This document shows, piece after piece, positions 1-32,535 of a DNA stretch of 32,535 nt. The notes under the pieces were generated by a model. It was not told where the DNA came from. It saw only the letters and a program-made list of their open reading frames with translations, and made no database searches. A program made the translations under genes and the position numbers. Origin of the DNA: a virus. Lineage: Duplodnaviria; Heunggongvirae; Uroviricota; Caudoviricetes. The stretch lies in IMG/VR virus record IMGVR_UViG_2541047835_000006, one strand, 5' to 3'. Each line of letters begins with the position of its first letter. Positions within the stretch are counted from its first letter, which is position 1.

Positions 1-501
1 TTCTCCCAAACCAAGGTTTTTGACAAAGAGCGCCGGGTCAGGAATATCAGCGCCGTTCTGGTCTTTGGCCAGCTTTTCCGCCAGCTTGTTCAACACAGTG
101 GTCGCAAAATTCGGATCGTTGCCGAGGGCATCAGCCAGCTCTTTGAGCGTATCCAGCGTCTCAGGGGCGCTGCCTGCAAGCGCCGCAAGTGCTTTGGCCA
201 CAAACTCCGTCGTCGCCAGCTTCTTGCTGTTATCGCTATTTGCAGGCGTAGGCGCTGTTGGTGTGCCGGTGAATGTCGGGCTGGCTTTCGGTGCGTACTG
301 GGTATGCGGGTCTGCTGCCGCGATATGTTTCGCAAGGTCAGAACCGCCTTTTTCAACCTGTTGCTTCAGGTACAGCGTGCGGCTGGCCAGTTGTTTACCC
401 TGACGGTTAGAAATTCCGTCAGGCCCGCCCAGAACGGGGTCAGAGACCTCAATCTGGTAGATGCCTTCTTCCCACTGCGGGGTTTCAGGTAGGTTTGCCA
501 T
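1..501 (-). CDS. Tail fibre protein, N-terminal 167 codons (gene continues beyond window start)
   Basis: Minus-strand frame open from ATG 501..499 to position 1; translation MANLPETPQWEEGIYQIEVSDPV...DPHTQYAPKASPTFTGTPTAPTP...LKELADALGNDPNFATT matches conserved tail-fibre N-terminal motifs; start 2 nt after the upstream stop. Not in ORF track because no stop in window. Confidence 0.7.
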   Translation of the reverse strand, partial: MANLPETPQWEEGIYQIEVSDPVLGGPDGISNRQGKQLASRTLYLKQQVEKGGSDLAKHIAAADPHTQYAPKASPTFTGTPTAPTPANSDNSKKLATTEFVAKALAALAGSAPETLDTLKELADALGNDPNFATTVLNKLAEKLAKDQNGADIPDPALFVKNLGLGE

Positions 502-22429: not shown

Positions 22430-22957
22430 TTAATCCTGCCTTGGACAAGTCCAATAATCATTATCTGGCTCTGGTGAATAAGCTTTCAAACAACCTGCTC
22501 GCGGGGGCTTACCATCATCTGTCATAGGAACTTTTTCCTTATCAAGTTTCACGGTCAGGTCTCCACCAGGAACATCCGTTTTATCGAAAAAAACAGCCTG
22601 ACATGCTGATTTAGATATTTTCACTTCGTGGGCATTATTTGATATGAACAAATAACAATTATGACCAGAGGCTATGTAGTCACTTGGAATATTATTTTCG
22701 TCTTTAATATGAAACTGCACCGTTGTCACCGGGCGTTCTCTATCCTCGGATACTTCGACTTTTTCAAAACTGTCCGCGTACTTATCCAGGCCGGGGAGTT
22801 GTTGGCGAATAAACGGTAATTCGCGATTTACAACCGGATTATCTGTTTCAACGCTAAAAACCGCGTGCTCCTTAGCTGTGGTGGACGTATCAGCAGGATC
22901 GGTATTATCTCCACACCCAGATAAAACAAATATCAACGGTAAAAATAATTTGCGCAT
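22430..22957 (-). CDS. Lipoprotein of unknown function, low-GC, directly downstream of repressor
   Basis: MRKLFLPLIFVLSGC signal peptide with lipobox; AAGGA SD; visibly AT-richer than the prophage backbone; 41-bp gap after repressor stop. Confidence 0.6.
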   Translation of the reverse strand: MRKLFLPLIFVLSGCGDNTDPADTSTTAKEHAVFSVETDNPVVNRELPFIRQQLPGLDKYADSFEKVEVSEDRERPVTTVQFHIKDENNIPSDYIASGHNCYLFISNNAHEVKISKSACQAVFFDKTDVPGGDLTVKLDKEKVPMTDDGKPPRAGCLKAYSPEPDNDYWTCPRQD

Positions 22958-22998
22958 AGTCATGTCCTTATACCTCTAATGTTCTTAATAGGAACAGA

Positions 22999-23409
22999 TT
23001 AACCCGTATTTTTTAATCTTTCGAACGCTGCGGACAGCTCCTTAAGCTGTTTTTCCATATCAATCATTCGCTGTTTTTCCTCAGCGCCTCGCAGCAACTC
23101 TTTTCGCACCTCTGGCTCCAGTTGATTGAGCAGCTCCAATAACTTCAGATCAGACTGGTTGAAATGCTGCTCCTGATTAGCTGGCTGTGCTTTCTCTACC
23201 CCAACAGCTTCCCCTTTACCAGTAAGTAGCCAATCTATTGATATGTTCAAATGGGTGCTTAGCGCAACAAGAGCCTCTGCATTAGGTTCTCTCTCTCCAC
23301 GCAGATAGTTTTGAAGTGAGCGATATGGAATTTTTGACAAGTCTGACAATGCCTTAATTGTCAGACCCTTAGCATCCATCGCTTCGCGCAATCTCTCTTT
23401 TATACTCAT
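22999..23409 (-). CDS. Prophage repressor, XRE-family HTH with C-terminal coiled coil
   Basis: Start at ATG 23409 (MSIKERLREAMDAKGLTIKALSDLSKIPYRSLQNYLRGEREP...); divergent from early operon. Confidence 0.75.
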   Translation of the reverse strand: MSIKERLREAMDAKGLTIKALSDLSKIPYRSLQNYLRGEREPNAEALVALSTHLNISIDWLLTGKGEAVGVEKAQPANQEQHFNQSDLKLLELLNQLEPEVRKELLRGAEEKQRMIDMEKQLKELSAAFERLKNTG

Positions 23410-23425
23410 TTGAACATATCTCAAT

Positions 23426-23453
23426 TTGACATACCCGTTTGGGTGCGTACAAT
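23426..23453 (+). promoter_or_regulatory. Early promoter (sigma70-like) for ner-like/transposase operon
   Basis: TTGACA (23426..23431), 16-bp spacer, TACAAT (23448..23453); followed by repeated ACCCAA(T/C)AG motifs at ~23454 and ~23474 that may be operator sites. Confidence 0.55.
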
Positions 23454-23497
23454 AGACCCAATAGAGTACATCATAACCCAACAGGAACACGGTGCAT

Positions 23498-23722
23498 ATG
23501 AACAAACAACAAGTTCGGGCACGGCTGGTTGAAAGAGGCAGTAGCTTGCGCCAGTTCGCGCTTAACGCGGGCTATGAGCCACGAACAGTCACCCAGGCTG
23601 TCAGCCGCTGGGCAGGCAAAAGCGAACTTCCACGCGGTCGTTTGACTTATCGGATTTTGCGAGACCTTTCGGTCGCAATAGGCAAAGAAGTTACCCCCGG
23701 CATCCTCAAGGAGGCGTCATGA
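23498..23722 (+). CDS. Ner-like/Cro-like early DNA-binding regulator
   Basis: 74 aa; segment GSSLRQFALNAGYEPRTVTQAV resembles Ner/Nlp HTH; first gene of early operon, divergent from repressor. Confidence 0.6.
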   Translation: MNKQQVRARLVERGSSLRQFALNAGYEPRTVTQAVSRWAGKSELPRGRLTYRILRDLSVAIGKEVTPGILKEAS

Positions 23723-24024
23723 GTAAACCAAATACATCAAGCTCAGGTACCCGTATTTTGCGTGTCCTTAAGGCTTTACGCGGTCACGCTCTGAACGGTG
23801 TTTCTAACGGCGAGCTGGCGTCAGCTCTGGGCGAGTCCCCGGCGAATATCAATCGGGCGCTCAATACCCTTATCGAAGAAGGACTGGCCCTGAAACTGGA
23901 TAACGGGCGTTTTGCCCCAGGAGTCCAGCTCTTACAAATCGCCATGGCGCACAGTACCGAAATGGCGCGGGCGCAGGATCGTATCAATGAAATTAACCAG
24001 CGTGTTATGGCTGGTAGTCGCTAA
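23719..24024 (+). CDS. Winged-helix DNA-binding protein (IclR/MarR-like N-terminal HTH), function unknown
   Basis: 101 aa; ILRVLKAL...GVSNGELASALGESPANINRALNTLIEEGL; ATGA overlap with upstream gene; AAGGAGG SD. Confidence 0.5.
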   Translation: MSKPNTSSSGTRILRVLKALRGHALNGVSNGELASALGESPANINRALNTLIEEGLALKLDNGRFAPGVQLLQIAMAHSTEMARAQDRINEINQRVMAGSR

Positions 24025-24033
24025 GGAGTTGAA

Positions 24034-24942
24034 ATGGGACGCACAAAATCACAACCAGTTGAACTAGTGGAAGATGCACCGCTGACCGATGGTCTCAGTG
24101 TCAGTCTTAATGCTATGTCCGAACATCGCCTCGAAATCATGCAGCAGTTTGGTGATGGCTTGCCGTATGAACGTGATCGTATTGTCCATGAAACACGTTT
24201 TTATATGGCTCAGAGTGCTGAAGCCATGCTGGAGGCGGGTAAACGACTGGTAATTCTCAAAGAAAATGAACCACATGGTGACTTCATCGACATCGTTGAG
24301 TCTCAGTTGTCCCTATCCAAACGTACGGCGCAGGTGATGATGCAAGCATCCCTCAAATATTTGTCTCCCAAGCTTGAACCAAAAGCGCAAGCGCTTGCGC
24401 TTTTGGGTAAAACAAAGCTGTTTGAGTTGATGACGGAAGATGACGAAGACCTCGTCGAATTAGCCGATGGCGGCACGATTGCGGGTATGAGCCTCGATGA
24501 TATTGATCGCATGACAAGCCGCGAACTGAAAGCGGCCCTACGCGAAGCGCGTGAAACCAACGCAGCACAACAGCGCGTGCTTGCCGACAAAAACGAAAAA
24601 ATCGACTCGCTCTCCACAAAACTGGAGAAGAAATCCCGTATCCAGCCGCCCAAGCCTGACGAAGAGGTGAAGAAGCTGCGTGCGGAAGTTACAGCGTTAG
24701 CGGTTGAGGCGGAATCTGCCATCGCCGTTCGACTGTCCAGCGCCTTTGAGACCCTGTGCGCATACTGTGCTGAAAATATGATTGATACCCCCAGAGACTT
24801 TATGGCCGGTCTGGTCTGCCAGTTGGAAAGCACCGCGCGTAGCCTGCGCTCCACATTTGACCTGCCGGACGAGCCGACAGGCAACGCCGCCCCTTCATGG
24901 CTGACTGACCCGACGCCAGAGATTAACGGGCAGGAGGCATAA
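24034..24942 (+). CDS. Hypothetical protein with central coiled coil, upstream of transposase
   Basis: 302 aa; AAGGAG SD; no recognised catalytic motif. Confidence 0.5.
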   Translation: MGRTKSQPVELVEDAPLTDGLSVSLNAMSEHRLEIMQQFGDGLPYERDRIVHETRFYMAQSAEAMLEAGKRLVILKENEPHGDFIDIVESQLSLSKRTAQVMMQASLKYLSPKLEPKAQALALLGKTKLFELMTEDDEDLVELADGGTIAGMSLDDIDRMTSRELKAALREARETNAAQQRVLADKNEKIDSLSTKLEKKSRIQPPKPDEEVKKLRAEVTALAVEAESAIAVRLSSAFETLCAYCAENMIDTPRDFMAGLVCQLESTARSLRSTFDLPDEPTGNAAPSWLTDPTPEINGQEA

Positions 24943-24945
24943 CCC

Positions 24946-26715
24946 ATGAGTGCCGCCCTGACTGAACGACTGGTTTATGTTGCCCGCGCGGCACGTGACG
25001 CGGGGCATGGTAAGCGTGGTGCGATATATGATGCCGCCTGCGCCGAACTGGGCATTTCCCGCGCCACCCTGCTGCGCAAGCTGAAGGAGGTATCAGTGAC
25101 TGACAAACGCAAAAAACGCGCCGATGCCGGGCGCAGCGCCCTGACCCGCGACGAAGCCGCGCTGATATCTGCCACACTACGTGAGGCCACCCGCAAGAAC
25201 GGTAAGCGTCTCTATTCCATCGCGGATGCAGTGGAAACCCTGCGGGCTAACGGCTTTATCTCCGCAGGCAGAACAGATGAAACCACCGGTGAGTTTTTCC
25301 CGTTGTCCGAAGATGCCATCAGCCGAGCCCTGCGTAACTATGGCCTGCACCCGGAACAACTGGATGCCCCTGCACCACATACTGAAGTGGCCAGTCTGCA
25401 TCCCAATCATGTCTGGCAGATTGATGCCTCGCTCTGCACGCTTTACTACCTGAGCAATGGACATAAAGGGCTGCAGGTGATGGACAGCGCGAAGTTCTAC
25501 AAGAACAAGCCCGCTAACCTTGCCCGTATCGCCAGTGACCGCGTGTGGAGTTACGAGATTACCGACCATGCCAGCGGCTGGATTTACGTTGAGTATGTGA
25601 CGGGAGCGGAATCCGGTGAGAACCTGTGTTCTGTGCTTATCAACGCCATGCAGGAGCGTGGCGGCGCAGACGTGCTGCACGGTGTGCCGAAAATACTCTA
25701 TCTCGACCCCGGCTCGGCAAACACCGCGGGTATGACGAAAAACATGTGTCGCTCACTGGGCATCGACCTGATAGCGCACAAGCCGCATAACGCCCGCGCC
25801 ACCGGACAGGTGGAAAAGGCGCGAGACATTATCGAACGCAAGCTGGAGCCGGGTCTGAAGTTCCGGCCGGTTCACAGTCTGGAAGAACTCAACGCGCTGG
25901 CCGCGAAATGGCGCAGCCACTTTAACGCAACAGCTGTTCACAGCCGCCACGGTAAAACCCGCACGGATATCTGGCTGAAGATTACTGCTGAGCAGTTGAA
26001 AAAAGCGCCTTCCGTTGAGGTTTGCCGTGAACTGGCTGTGGCAGCACCAGAACTCCGCAAAGTCACGCCAAAACTTCGTGTCTCGTTCCGGGGCACTGAA
26101 TTTGACGTATCAACGGTACCGGGCGTACTGGTCGGTGAAAAACTGATGATTACCCGTAACCCGTGGCGCAGCGATGTGGCACAGGTGGTTCTGACCGGTG
26201 AGGACGGCCACGAGACGTTCTTCCTGGTCGAAGAGGTCAGAAAGAACGAGTTTGGCTTTGCTGAAGGCGCGGCAGTATTTGGCGAAAGTTACAAAGCCCT
26301 GCCGGAAACCCCGGCGCAGATGGCGGCAAAAGAAACCGAAGCGCTGGTCACCGGTACAGACAACGCCGCAGATGCAGCTGCCGCACGCAAGGCGAAGGCG
26401 CTGCCGTTCGGCGGGCGGCTTGACCCGTATAAACATATCGACGACACCACACTTCCGGCCTATATGCCGAAGCGTGGTCAGGCCTCTGACGTACGCGGGC
26501 CGCGCACTGAACAACGTCCCATGACTCATGTGGAGGCCGCGAAAGCCCTGCGCGATAAGTTCAGCGCCGACGGCCTTACCTGGACGCCGGAACATTACCG
26601 CCAGTTAACGGCACAGTACCCGGACGGCGTACCGGAAGCCGCACTGGATGAAGTCATGGCCACGCTGACCACACCGGCCAGCAGCAGTGTTATCAGCATT
26701 GTTAACGGCAACTGA
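24946..26715 (+). CDS. DDE transposase (Mu A-like role; rve/TnsB-like catalytic core)
   Basis: 589 aa; N-terminal HTH; candidate D160 (HVWQID), D254 (LYLDPG), E290 (GQVEKA); AGGAGG SD; followed by AAA+ ATPase gene. Confidence 0.85.
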   Translation: MSAALTERLVYVARAARDAGHGKRGAIYDAACAELGISRATLLRKLKEVSVTDKRKKRADAGRSALTRDEAALISATLREATRKNGKRLYSIADAVETLRANGFISAGRTDETTGEFFPLSEDAISRALRNYGLHPEQLDAPAPHTEVASLHPNHVWQIDASLCTLYYLSNGHKGLQVMDSAKFYKNKPANLARIASDRVWSYEITDHASGWIYVEYVTGAESGENLCSVLINAMQERGGADVLHGVPKILYLDPGSANTAGMTKNMCRSLGIDLIAHKPHNARATGQVEKARDIIERKLEPGLKFRPVHSLEELNALAAKWRSHFNATAVHSRHGKTRTDIWLKITAEQLKKAPSVEVCRELAVAAPELRKVTPKLRVSFRGTEFDVSTVPGVLVGEKLMITRNPWRSDVAQVVLTGEDGHETFFLVEEVRKNEFGFAEGAAVFGESYKALPETPAQMAAKETEALVTGTDNAADAAAARKAKALPFGGRLDPYKHIDDTTLPAYMPKRGQASDVRGPRTEQRPMTHVEAAKALRDKFSADGLTWTPEHYRQLTAQYPDGVPEAALDEVMATLTTPASSSVISIVNGN

Positions 26716-26725
26716 GGAGGGAAAC

Positions 26726-27892
26726 ATGCTGGTACTGAAGCAGCAACTGAAAGAGGCCCGTATTCCACAGGCGGTGGTGGCGAGAGCTGTCGATGTTTCT
26801 GAGGCCACGCTGGCCCAGATTGTGAATCATAACGCGTGGCCCCGCACCAGTCCCGGAGAAGTACGCCGGCGTCTTGCGTCCTGGCTGGAAAGTCAGGGGA
26901 TTGATACAACGAAGAGTTTTGATGCTGTACAGGGCGCGGCCACGCCCCGTACAGCGGGTACCACAGATAAAACGAGCCTCAGTGAGGAAGAGAATATGTT
27001 ACTCAAAAAACAGGTGTTATTTCCAGCAACCAAAAAAGCGTTTGGTCTTTTCCGTGACCCGTTCGCCGACGAAGCCATGCAGGGTTCTGATGATGTGTTC
27101 ACCACCCCGGACATCCGCTATGTGCGTGAGGCGCTGTACCAGACAGCCCGTCATGGTGGATTTATGGCCGTCATCGGTGAGTCCGGTGCGGGTAAATCCA
27201 CGCTGCGCCGCGACCTGACTGAACGTATCAACCGCGAGAATGCGCCGGTAATTGTTATCGAGCCATATGTCATCGCCATGGAAGACAACGATGTGAAAGG
27301 GAAAACCCTGAAGGCAGCAGCGATTGCCGAAGCCATTATCAGTACCATCGCACCACTGGAAAGCATCAGACGCAGTCAGGATGCCCGCTTTCGCCAGCTG
27401 CATCGCGTCCTGAAAGACAGCAGCCAGGCGGGGTTCAGCCACGTTCTGGTGATTGAGGAGGCCCACAGCCTGCCCATTCCGACACTGAAACACCTCAAAC
27501 GCTTTTTTGAGCTGGAGTCCGGTTTCAAAAAACTGCTGTCCATCGTGCTGATTGGCCAGCCGGAACTGGCGACAAAACTGTCTGAACGCAATATGGAAGT
27601 CCGTGAAGTCGTTCAGCGCTGTGAGGTGGTCGAACTTCTGCCTCTCGACAATAACCTTGAAGAGTTTCTGACGTTCAAACTGCAACGGGCCGGTAAACAA
27701 CTGACGGACATTATGGACGCCGGCGCAGTGGATGCCATACGTGCCCGCCTGAGCAATCCGGGAAGTCACCGTAAAAACAGGGTCAGCCTGCTGTATCCGC
27801 TGGCCGTCAGTAACCTGGTAATAGCCGCCATGAATCTGGCCGCTGAAATCGGGGTTCCACAGGTCAACGCTGACGTTGTCAAAGGGGTTTAA
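26726..27892 (+). CDS. Transposition ATPase (Mu B-like role; AAA+ with N-terminal HTH)
   Basis: Walker A GESGAGKST, Walker B-like VLVIEEAH; ATG 26726 with GGAGG SD, just after transposase stop. Confidence 0.8.
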   Translation: MLVLKQQLKEARIPQAVVARAVDVSEATLAQIVNHNAWPRTSPGEVRRRLASWLESQGIDTTKSFDAVQGAATPRTAGTTDKTSLSEEENMLLKKQVLFPATKKAFGLFRDPFADEAMQGSDDVFTTPDIRYVREALYQTARHGGFMAVIGESGAGKSTLRRDLTERINRENAPVIVIEPYVIAMEDNDVKGKTLKAAAIAEAIISTIAPLESIRRSQDARFRQLHRVLKDSSQAGFSHVLVIEEAHSLPIPTLKHLKRFFELESGFKKLLSIVLIGQPELATKLSERNMEVREVVQRCEVVELLPLDNNLEEFLTFKLQRAGKQLTDIMDAGAVDAIRARLSNPGSHRKNRVSLLYPLAVSNLVIAAMNLAAEIGVPQVNADVVKGV

Positions 27893-27894
27893 TA

Positions 27895-28164
27895 ATGAAA
27901 TCCATCACAGGTATCAACCAGCAAATCAGCAAAGTGCAGTCAGCCATTATGGCGCTTATGGCGACGAACACGGATGTACAAAGCATCACCATCAGGGGCA
28001 ATAAACCGGTCATCCGCGTTTCCCGGAGTGCGCATTGCATGCGCATGCTTGAACAGGGGAAAGCCAGTTATCTGTATACCGGTCATGACCACAGGGGACA
28101 TTTCCGTCAGGGCGTTTTCGAACTGCACGGCTGTCGCGTCGTGTGGCCGGAATCTTTGTGGTAA
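27895..28164 (+). CDS. Small hypothetical protein at the position of Mu kil
   Basis: 89 aa; starts 2 nt after B-like stop. Confidence 0.45.
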   Translation: MKSITGINQQISKVQSAIMALMATNTDVQSITIRGNKPVIRVSRSAHCMRMLEQGKASYLYTGHDHRGHFRQGVFELHGCRVVWPESLW

Positions 28165-28191
28165 TCAGCACAACCGGAGAAATCATAAAAT

Positions 28192-28722
28192 ATGGCAAAA
28201 AGTACAAAAGGGGCAAAACGTATCAAGTCCGCAGCGGCACTCTGGGTACCGGGGACACGCGAAGAGGTCATTGAGGGCATCAGACTGCTCGGTGACGCAC
28301 AACGTGAACTGGTCAGGGCTGAAACAGAAATGAATGACGCCATTGGCGATATCACCGCACGTTATGCCCCGCTCACCGAGAGCCTGAAAAAACGCATGTC
28401 AGAACTGCAGTCCGGTATCCAGACATGGTGTGAGGCACACCGTGATGAACTGACCGGCAACGGGAAGGTGAAGTTCGCTAACCTCACCACCGGCGAGGTG
28501 CAGTGGCGAAACCGTCCGCCATCAGTCAGTATCCGTGGAGCGGATAATGTTATTGAACTACTGAGACGTCTGGGGCTTGAGCGCTTTATTCGTGTAAAAG
28601 AGGAAATAAATAAAGATGCCATTCTGAATGAAAAAGAGGCCGTGAAAAATATTCCCGGCATTACCATAAAAAGTGATATTGAGGATTTTTCAATAATTCC
28701 TTTTGAGCAGGATGTGCAGTAA
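28192..28722 (+). CDS. gam: Host-nuclease inhibitor Gam (Mu Gam family)
   Basis: 176 aa; recalled similarity to Mu Gam including RIKSAAA..., ETEMNDAI, RPPSVSIRG and C-terminal IEDFSIIPFEQ. Confidence 0.8.
   Translation: MAKSTKGAKRIKSAAALWVPGTREEVIEGIRLLGDAQRELVRAETEMNDAIGDITARYAPLTESLKKRMSELQSGIQTWCEAHRDELTGNGKVKFANLTTGEVQWRNRPPSVSIRGADNVIELLRRLGLERFIRVKEEINKDAILNEKEAVKNIPGITIKSDIEDFSIIPFEQDVQ

Positions 28723-32133: not shown

Positions 32134-32535
<402 letters not shown>

Follow-up and report, generated by a model that had tools for sequence, protein, structure and literature searches.

The described systems closest to the element examined here are the transposable Burkholderia phages BcepMu and phiE255 (Bcepmuvirus) and Pseudomonas phage B3 with PM105 and JBD25 (Beetrevirus), whose kind of transposase has been named the B3/Tn552 family of transposable phages (PMC8705779). 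In a published survey only the transposase TnpA and the ATPase TnpB were universal across all transposable prophages, those of Leptospira included (PMC8705779). The 32,535-nucleotide (nt) stretch of DNA analysed here (IMG/VR virus record IMGVR_UViG_2541047835_000006, referred to as a whole as the window) has an early operon resembling that of phage Mu, comprising a divergent repressor, a first gene for a small DNA-binding protein, a transposase of the DDE type, an AAA+ ATPase, Gam, GemA and Mor. In Mu, however, nothing lies between ner and the transposase gene A, while the window has two genes at this place. We refer to their products of 101 and 302 amino acids (aa) as W and D, to the transposase as TnpA (gene tnpA) and to the ATPase as TnpB. 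A preliminary description of this DNA had taken W and D for extra genes inserted between a ner-like regulator and the transposase gene.

The window carries a BcepMu/B3-type transposable prophage which, at its transposition module, is no relative of Mu. TnpA is 57-69% identical over its full length to the transposases of B3, BcepMu and phiE255, and a BLASTP comparison of TnpA with MuA found no similarity (E = 0.47). The TnpB gene lies directly 3' of the transposase gene, as it does in the relatives, the repressor gene takes the position equivalent to BcepMu gp17 and B3 ORF18, and a gene for a Mor homologue closes the early operon. The element is also a common one. A 5-kb region matches Klebsiella phage KP12 and Escherichia phage Phi06_2974 B at 94% identity, and from the transposase gene onward the window shares 97.7% identity with Escherichia phage PhiKM, which is classified in Bcepmuvirus. 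The region is matched in 638 of 5426 complete E. coli genomes, and a D protein of identical sequence is encoded on at least 1000 contigs across Enterobacterales.

Rather than being an insertion, W and D almost certainly open a conserved early cassette of four genes (W, D, TnpA, TnpB), which characterises the transposable phages with a B3/BcepMu (Tn552-related) transposase. To establish the gene order, 160 loci encoding this transposase type were taken from genomes and viral contigs and their open reading frames (ORFs) were scanned with W, D and TnpA profiles. Enough upstream sequence for an assessment was present in 149 of the 160 loci, with TnpA identities of 55-99%, and in all 149 W and then D stand upstream of the transposase in the same order; five apparent misses in the scan were an effect of the overlap threshold, the W and D matches being present. 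Across the loci, W and D are mostly separated by 9-19 nt, and D and tnpA by 3 nt. The same succession is found in B3 (ORF14, ORF13, ORF12, ORF11), BcepMu (gp12, (gp11), gp10, gp09, gp08), phiE255 (gp42, gp41, gp40, gp39), PM105 (PM105_14-13-12-11), JBD25 (gp16-15-14-13), a Stenotrophomonas phage (Bhz63_18-17-16-15) and the Microcystis phage Mae-JY22, and among these named phages transposase identity goes down to 39%. A phage collection contained 69 records with the transposase and 68 with D (tblastn), from the same genera. The flanks of the cassette vary, with 0-3 genes between the first early gene and W and with differing families after TnpB. Although ner does stand directly before the transposase gene in Mu, as the preliminary description had it, the term inserted is a Mu-centred misreading, because Mu is the wrong reference and the pair is ancestral and universally syntenic in the B3/BcepMu lineage.

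Comparison with the two best described genera illustrates both the constancy of the cassette and the variation around it. In the Beetrevirus members B3 (ORF14/ORF13), PM105 and JBD25, a winged helix-turn-helix (wHTH) protein of ~100 aa, a DUF3102 protein of ~300-325 aa, the transposase and an AAA_22 ATPase follow one another in the order seen in the window, with identities to the window of 57-60% for W, 31-50% for D and 50-57% for the transposase. B3 and PM105 differ in having extra genes, a CII-like activator gene among them, between the first early gene and W, whereas in the window the start of W and the stop codon of the preceding first early gene overlap; the siphovirus virion and the host of B3-type phages differ as well. 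The Bcepmuvirus pairs gp12/gp10 of BcepMu and gp42/gp41 of phiE255 belong to the same cassette, next to a transposase that is 69% identical. These phages also share the genome layout of the window, in which lysis genes are followed by a repressor and then by a divergent early operon that ends in Mor next to the genome end. BcepMu differs in having the 70-aa gp11 between W and D, and identity to the window is only ~35% in W and ~37-40% in D.

Small genes are occasionally present within the cassette. PhiKM has a 105-aa gene of phrog_5446 between D and tnpA (L002 3656-3973), gp11 of BcepMu belongs to phrog_29166 (L005 4634-4846), and locus gaps of ~330 nt and 230-300 nt indicate that both of these variants are found repeatedly. 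The small ORF after the ATPase gene (27895-28164) was considered as a fifth conserved cassette gene and rejected. The ATPase gene always has a small ORF behind it, but not of one family; it belongs to phrog_2041 here and to phrog_2043 in B3, BcepMu and JBD25, so that it is a positional analogue only.

Coordinates of the features in the window are collected in Table 1. The two ORFs reported between the ner-like gene and the transposase gene are present, both opening with ATG, and the strong Shine-Dalgarno (SD) sites and tight coupling attributed to them are borne out by the sequence reading. The W gene has the SD sequence AAGGAGG at 23708-14, and its start codon, ATG at 23719, shares bases with the TGA stop of the ner-like gene before it (ATGA). 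D is preceded by AAGGAG at 24023-28, 5 nt 5' of its ATG at 24034, with 9 nt between the W TAA and the D ATG. The transposase gene has AGGAGG at 24932-37, 8 nt 5' of an ATG (24946) that lies 3 nt past the D TAA. A consensus scan of 22900-28300 found the early promoter-like site pE as the sole good plus strand promoter match. Plus strand terminator-like sites in the same region were limited to 26772-26792 (weak, just inside the ATPase gene) and 28128-28149 (after the ATPase gene), with none between the pE-like site and tnpA. Together with the first early gene, the genes for W, D, TnpA and TnpB look like one operon, since there is one upstream promoter-like site and no plus strand terminator-like site before the ATPase gene. 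In the related phage Fc02 this early operon is transcribed from pE according to RNA sequencing, and the ORFs of the pE operon other than A, B, gemA and mor are stated to be unassigned (PMC9936078).

Table 1 Features of the prophage in the window, in order of position
Feature	Position	Strand	Matches and remarks
Repressor gene, 136 aa, cI/Cro-type helix-turn-helix (HTH), divergent from early operon	22999..23409	-	Pfam HTH_3 3e-12, Phage_CI_repr 2e-6
Early promoter-like site pE (TTGACA, 16 nt, TACAAT)	23426..23453	+	11/12 consensus positions; consensus match only
First early gene, 'ner-like', 74 aa	23498..23722 (ATG 23498; ORF opens GTG 23492)	+	phrog_8503 5.4e-35
W, 101-aa basic winged-helix protein	23719..24024	+	Pfam HTH_IclR 1.2e-6, phrog_1368 1.6e-44 full length
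D, 302-aa acidic all-helical DUF3102 protein	24034..24942	+	PF11300 6e-7, phrog_1748 4.5e-133
Transposase TnpA, 589 aa, rve core, B3/BcepMu/Tn552-related	24946..26715	+	Pfam rve, phrog_310
Transposition ATPase TnpB, 388 aa, AAA_22/ExeA-like	26726..27892	+	AAA_22 2.7e-20, phrog_296 'DNA transposition protein'
Prophage end, finishes ...TATCTCA at 32250, two bipartite repeats (TGAGATAWWT + GGGAAKA on - strand)	32187..32250	+	Aligns with BcepMu and B3 left ends

The winged-helix assignment of W holds. The HTH_IclR match scores 28.7 bits against a cut-off of 22, and Foldseek gives a wHTH probability of ~0.99. Residues ~10-60 were aligned by Foldseek to the wHTH domains of AsnC, IclR (PcaR) and MarR proteins at 1.3-2.3 Å over ~45-53 residues, with E-values that are weak, the domain being short. 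In an AlphaFold2 model (pLDDT 70) W has helices at residues 8-20, 30-37, 41-53 and 66-99 and a wing region, and is thus predicted to combine a DNA-binding domain of IclR-like type with a single long C-terminal helix (66-99). This C-terminal helix shows heptad periodicity at the ~4% level in a crude test, which is compatible with dimerisation. The net charge of W is +4 (family range 0 to +7). IclR proteins are ~250 aa long, and W shares with them the N-terminal wHTH above the Pfam threshold but not the effector-binding domain; Pfam gave no match to the IclR C-terminal effector domain in W, where a single helix follows the wHTH. Because this domain is missing, W is a stand-alone DNA-binding module and no ligand-responsive IclR regulator in the functional sense. 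No significant match to W was found among PDB sequences, and a literature search for IclR in connection with Mu-like phages found nothing.

The structural picture of D is less sharp. D matches PF11300 (DUF3102) with 30.2 bits over residues 64-171 (cut-off 24.4), and its phrog_1748 match covers positions 1-301 of 302. The AlphaFold2 model, of low confidence (pLDDT 56), is all-alpha with long helices at 162-197, 210-248 and 253-274; the models of both W and D rest on shallow alignments. D had been described as a coiled-coil protein. The long predicted helices speak for this, as do the weak matches to coiled-coil Pfam families that recur among D homologues, but a crude home-made heptad score did not rise above shuffled sequences (best window 163-190, 0.51 vs shuffle maxima of 0.52 ± 0.08, p ~0.5), and a coiled coil in D is not established. 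The charge of D is more distinctive, being -17 in D itself with a family median of -16 and a range of -22 to -8 across 62 homologues. This charge is unevenly distributed: the DUF3102 core is mildly basic, residues 136-160 are very acidic, and the acidic tail carries a conserved C-terminal P-x-W motif. Alignments revealed an HTH-like signature in the core (consensus F-x3-C/V-x2-L-G-x4-A-x-R), and a few D homologues have weak matches to HTH_28, HTH_11 and HTH_Mga. An antisense ORF of 214 aa lies wholly within the D gene (24303-24947, minus strand) and probably results from composition; in the regulatory region of the related phage Fc02, however, antisense genes that overlap others and are active in exclusion have been described (PMC9936078).

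W and D are already known as annotated families (B3 ORF13/14, BcepMu gp10/12, PF11300 and PHROGs 1368 and 1748), and the full-length PHROG matches, the identical D on at least 1000 contigs and low ratios of nonsynonymous to synonymous substitution rates (dN/dS) demonstrate that they are real genes under purifying selection. Ratios of ~0.04 for W and of ~0.13 for D, compared with ~0.14 for the transposase, were obtained; these values are approximate, being pairwise against relatives with dS near saturation. The pair belongs to the conserved core of this phage lineage, and no transposition function is on record for it. NCBIfam has no family for D, and a DUF3102 literature search found no relevant paper. 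D gave no significant match to the PDB by sequence, and a Foldseek search of the D model against the PDB returned nothing with E < 3, while among viral models the same search found only other uncharacterised DUF3102 proteins. PADLOC gave no defence or anti-defence membership, only weak generic wHTH matches with E >= 2e-5 and low bit scores.

Of the two proteins, D is the deeper and more fundamental partner and W a clade-level one, because D accompanies two phage transposase lineages and persists where W is missing. The second lineage is represented by Burkholderia phage KS10, whose gp15 is a full-length phrog_1748 member (2.6e-53; hhalign E 3e-5). Like D, gp15 stands directly after a small HTH first early gene and directly before the transposase; KS10 differs in lacking a W gene and in having a transposase of the Mu/D3112 lineage with a Mu-transpos_C domain. 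D3112 (Casadabanvirus) also has several small genes, orf3-orf5, between its ner-like gene and transposase gene A, but these show no homology and belong to no Pfam families, and a search of the D3112 early region with the D profile detected no counterpart of D. A relationship between W and D3112 orf3 was tried and rejected (hhalign probability 0.2%).

An exhaustive profile search identified 1950 D-family representatives (50% identity clusters) at E <= 1e-3. Most are ~300 aa in length, and a few reach ~430-545 aa through an N-terminal extension of ~150-260 aa that is Cys-rich in some; P0411, P0425 and P0467 have repeated Cys-rich motifs in this extension. The genomic context was examined for three of the longest homologues (532-545 aa; L181 2105-3718, L182 7001-8599 and L183 1056-2693), in which the extension amounts to ~230-260 aa. 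In two of these loci, L181 and L183, a small first early gene stands immediately before the long D; that of L181 is of the Ner family (HTH_35). In L182 two small ORFs separate a Ner-family gene from the long D. A B3-type transposase is encoded just downstream of the long D in L181 and L182, and the L183 contig ends just past D. No W homologue was detectable in these three loci even at E <= 1. All seven further D homologues sampled on contigs extending past D lie directly upstream of a transposase-sized gene, three of these genes being confirmed as B3 type by hidden Markov model or Pfam. Among them are four homologues (five contigs) sampled besides L181-L183, and on two of these five contigs the gene before D encodes an HTH_IclR/MarR protein of ~100 aa.

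On an Enterobacter IncFIB phage-plasmid a 243-aa DUF3102 paralogue (L179 2930-3661) stands ahead of a hypothetical gene, Mor, two more hypothetical genes and a tape-measure gene, near a full-length D homologue, and this fragmentary-looking Mor-tape-measure cassette recurs with the paralogue on a Citrobacter IncFIC plasmid (L172 4899-5630).

Compared over 22900-28300, the window is a clean recombinant, KP12-like (99-100%) from 22900 to ~25100 and PhiKM-like (96-100%) from ~25000. The KP12-like part takes in the repressor and first early genes together with W, D and the initial ~150 nt of tnpA, which places the crossover at ~24950-25150, the very start of the transposase gene. Among the neighbouring genes, D is the one whose divergence tracks that of the transposase best over the whole range (Spearman 0.60); in this pairwise analysis the ATPase values are unreliable, missing ORFs having been scored 0. 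For W, the upstream kilobase is unrelated in 72% of the locus pairs in which W is at least 95% identical. The predicted recognition helix of W, SPANINRALNTLIEEG, is identical in hetero-immune PhiKM, which has an unrelated operator region, and is similar in B3, PM105 and BcepMu. Since W and its recognition helix are conserved across hetero-immune relatives, the DNA target of W, if any, would be a conserved site and not an immunity-specific operator, and W is predicted not to bind the operator at 23410-23497.

The pair is an ordinary trait of a known and very common phage type and no anomaly of the window. The transposition module of this common element differs from the textbook Mu module. Two strongly constrained genes are always present with the transposase, and the interest lies in what these retained partners do. 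The preliminary description had suggested an extra regulatory layer or transposition accessory factors, a range that is plausible once the framing as an extra insertion, which is wrong, has been set aside. We tentatively propose, at somewhat less than an even chance, that W and D are accessory or control factors for transposition-replication. All four cassette genes would be read from pE on one transcript and be translationally coupled. W, a small basic protein that probably dimerises via its C-terminal helix, would bind a DNA site conserved across immunity types, and D would serve as an acidic helical adaptor with an HTH-like DUF3102 core, acidic segments and the P-x-W motif. Together they may help to assemble or license the TnpA/TnpB nucleoprotein complex or couple this complex to host replication, and they would not be catalytic components.

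A parallel for such a division of labour is offered by MuA, in which the N-terminal domain I-alpha is enhancer-binding and provides a DNA-binding function in cis; by analogy, a separate wHTH protein could in principle supply the DNA-binding function that MuA carries in cis. W was tried as a counterpart of the MuA N-terminus by sequence and rejected (hhalign probability 0.4%). A bolder form of the proposal, which we consider doubtful, is that B3/BcepMu-lineage transposition is a four-component system. D would then be an adaptor linking the complex of transposase and AAA+ ATPase to DNA or to the host replication-restart machinery, with W, or the N-terminal extension of D where W is absent, as site-specific DNA anchor, and the transposase partnered by this adaptor would be of Tn552 type or, in KS10, of Mu type. 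Should W and D prove to be transposition or replication cofactors, the minimal machinery of the second major transposable-phage family would need revising, and the cofactor role would matter for building mini-B3 or mini-BcepMu genetic tools.

A number of observations weigh against a role in transposition. The Tn552 transposase works in vitro without such partners, and none of the sources searched (Pfam, NCBIfam, PHROGs, PADLOC, PDB and papers) gives a function to W or D. The strong acidity of D speaks against general DNA binding by this protein. The structure models of both proteins have low to moderate confidence. Judged from the locus comparison, D alleles recombine freely relative to the transposase, D being less than 85% identical in 30% of the locus pairs whose TnpA proteins are at least 95% identical. 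Allele-specific co-adaptation between D and TnpA was considered and rejected, since there is no sign of it and recombination at the D/tnpA boundary is free. Furthermore, the DUF3102 N-domain is present in early or replication regions of non-transposing elements: in an Alicyclobacillus plasmid, where its neighbours are replication, ATP-binding and ORF6C-domain proteins, and in a Geobacillus phage-plasmid with a serine recombinase, between cro-like and ERF/DnaD genes. The Enterobacter IncFIB phage-plasmid likewise encodes a full-length D homologue (L179 4001-4957) with no adjacent transposase.

The main rival reading makes W and D transcriptional or developmental regulators without a direct role in transposition. 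W would activate or repress at specific sites, D would be a co-regulator or resemble an anti-repressor, and the two would influence the choice between lysis and lysogeny or the timing of the early-to-middle transition; the adjacency to tnpA would reflect early operon order only. In favour of this, W is a genuine wHTH protein of the IclR/MarR/AsnC type, a CII-like activator gene stands immediately upstream of W in B3 and PM105, and in the window W and D go with the immunity segment rather than with tnpA and the ATPase gene. D-family and DUF3102 proteins are also encoded just after cro/ner-like genes in non-transposing temperate elements, and the neighbour of the DUF3102 protein in the Alicyclobacillus plasmid has an ORF6C domain, which is known from phage anti-repressors. 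Nevertheless, the retention of W and its recognition helix across unrelated operators implies that W is no immunity-specific regulator, and the homologue of Mor, the activator of the middle step in Mu, is already encoded at the end of the early operon. The adjacency of D and tnpA is moreover strict across two transposase lineages despite varying neighbours, for which operon order alone is insufficient. On balance we regard a purely regulatory role as rather unlikely.

The conserved acidity of D (-8 to -22 across the 62 homologues) and the short P-x-W motif conserved in its acidic tail would also suit an early function directed at the host, in which D, alone or together with W, would sequester a host factor, recruit one or provide superinfection exclusion. 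Replication restart, nucleoid and repair proteins are the candidate host factors, and the link to tnpA would be merely habitual. The DUF3102 domain does occur in plasmids and non-transposing phages beside replication and recombination genes, and exclusion activity has been reported for gene 10, an early gene nearby in the beetrevirus Fc02 (PMC9936078). Takeover and exclusion genes, however, are usually variable morons, whereas W and D are universal, syntenic and strongly constrained, and beyond generic wHTH noise there are no matches to known defence or anti-defence families, which leaves a host-directed function quite improbable. That W and D are a recent insertion, a moron cassette in a Mu-like ner-A junction, has its only support in the comparison with Mu, where ner abuts A, and can be dismissed with near certainty, given that the cassette is present in every relative examined, from hosts in the Gamma- and Betaproteobacteria and even in cyanophages, that the transposase is not of Mu type, and that ner and A are also separated by genes in other transposable phages that are not Mu (D3112 orf3-5, KS10 gp15).

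With regard to the gene upstream of the cassette, the designation ner-like regulator applies to its position, which is analogous to that of Ner; homology is weak, with 17.6 bits to the Ner family HTH_35 (cut-off 25) and 29.1 bits to TIGR04111, the BcepMu gp16 family (cut-off 34). The divergent relatives L181, L182 and L187 have true HTH_35 Ner-family genes at the first-early-gene position.

An end-like half-site, TGAGATATGT, is located at 23414-23423 on the minus strand, beside the pE -35 hexamer and the repressor start codon, and recalls the Mu enhancer, which overlaps the Mu operators. It was considered as an enhancer-like site of the lineage and dropped, since it is confined to this immunity type and missing from hetero-immune relatives that share the transposase. 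The operator regions of these hetero-immune relatives yielded no conserved end motif resembling an enhancer. TG...CA termini and a 6-bp target-site duplication are traits of the lineage (PMC8705779), and the single prophage end within the window finishes in ...CA, the opposite end lying outside it. The bipartite repeats at this end are presumed TnpA-binding sites. Beyond the prophage end (32251-32535) the window consists of host coding sequence, the phage being inserted in a host NUDIX hydrolase gene that we take to be nudG-like.

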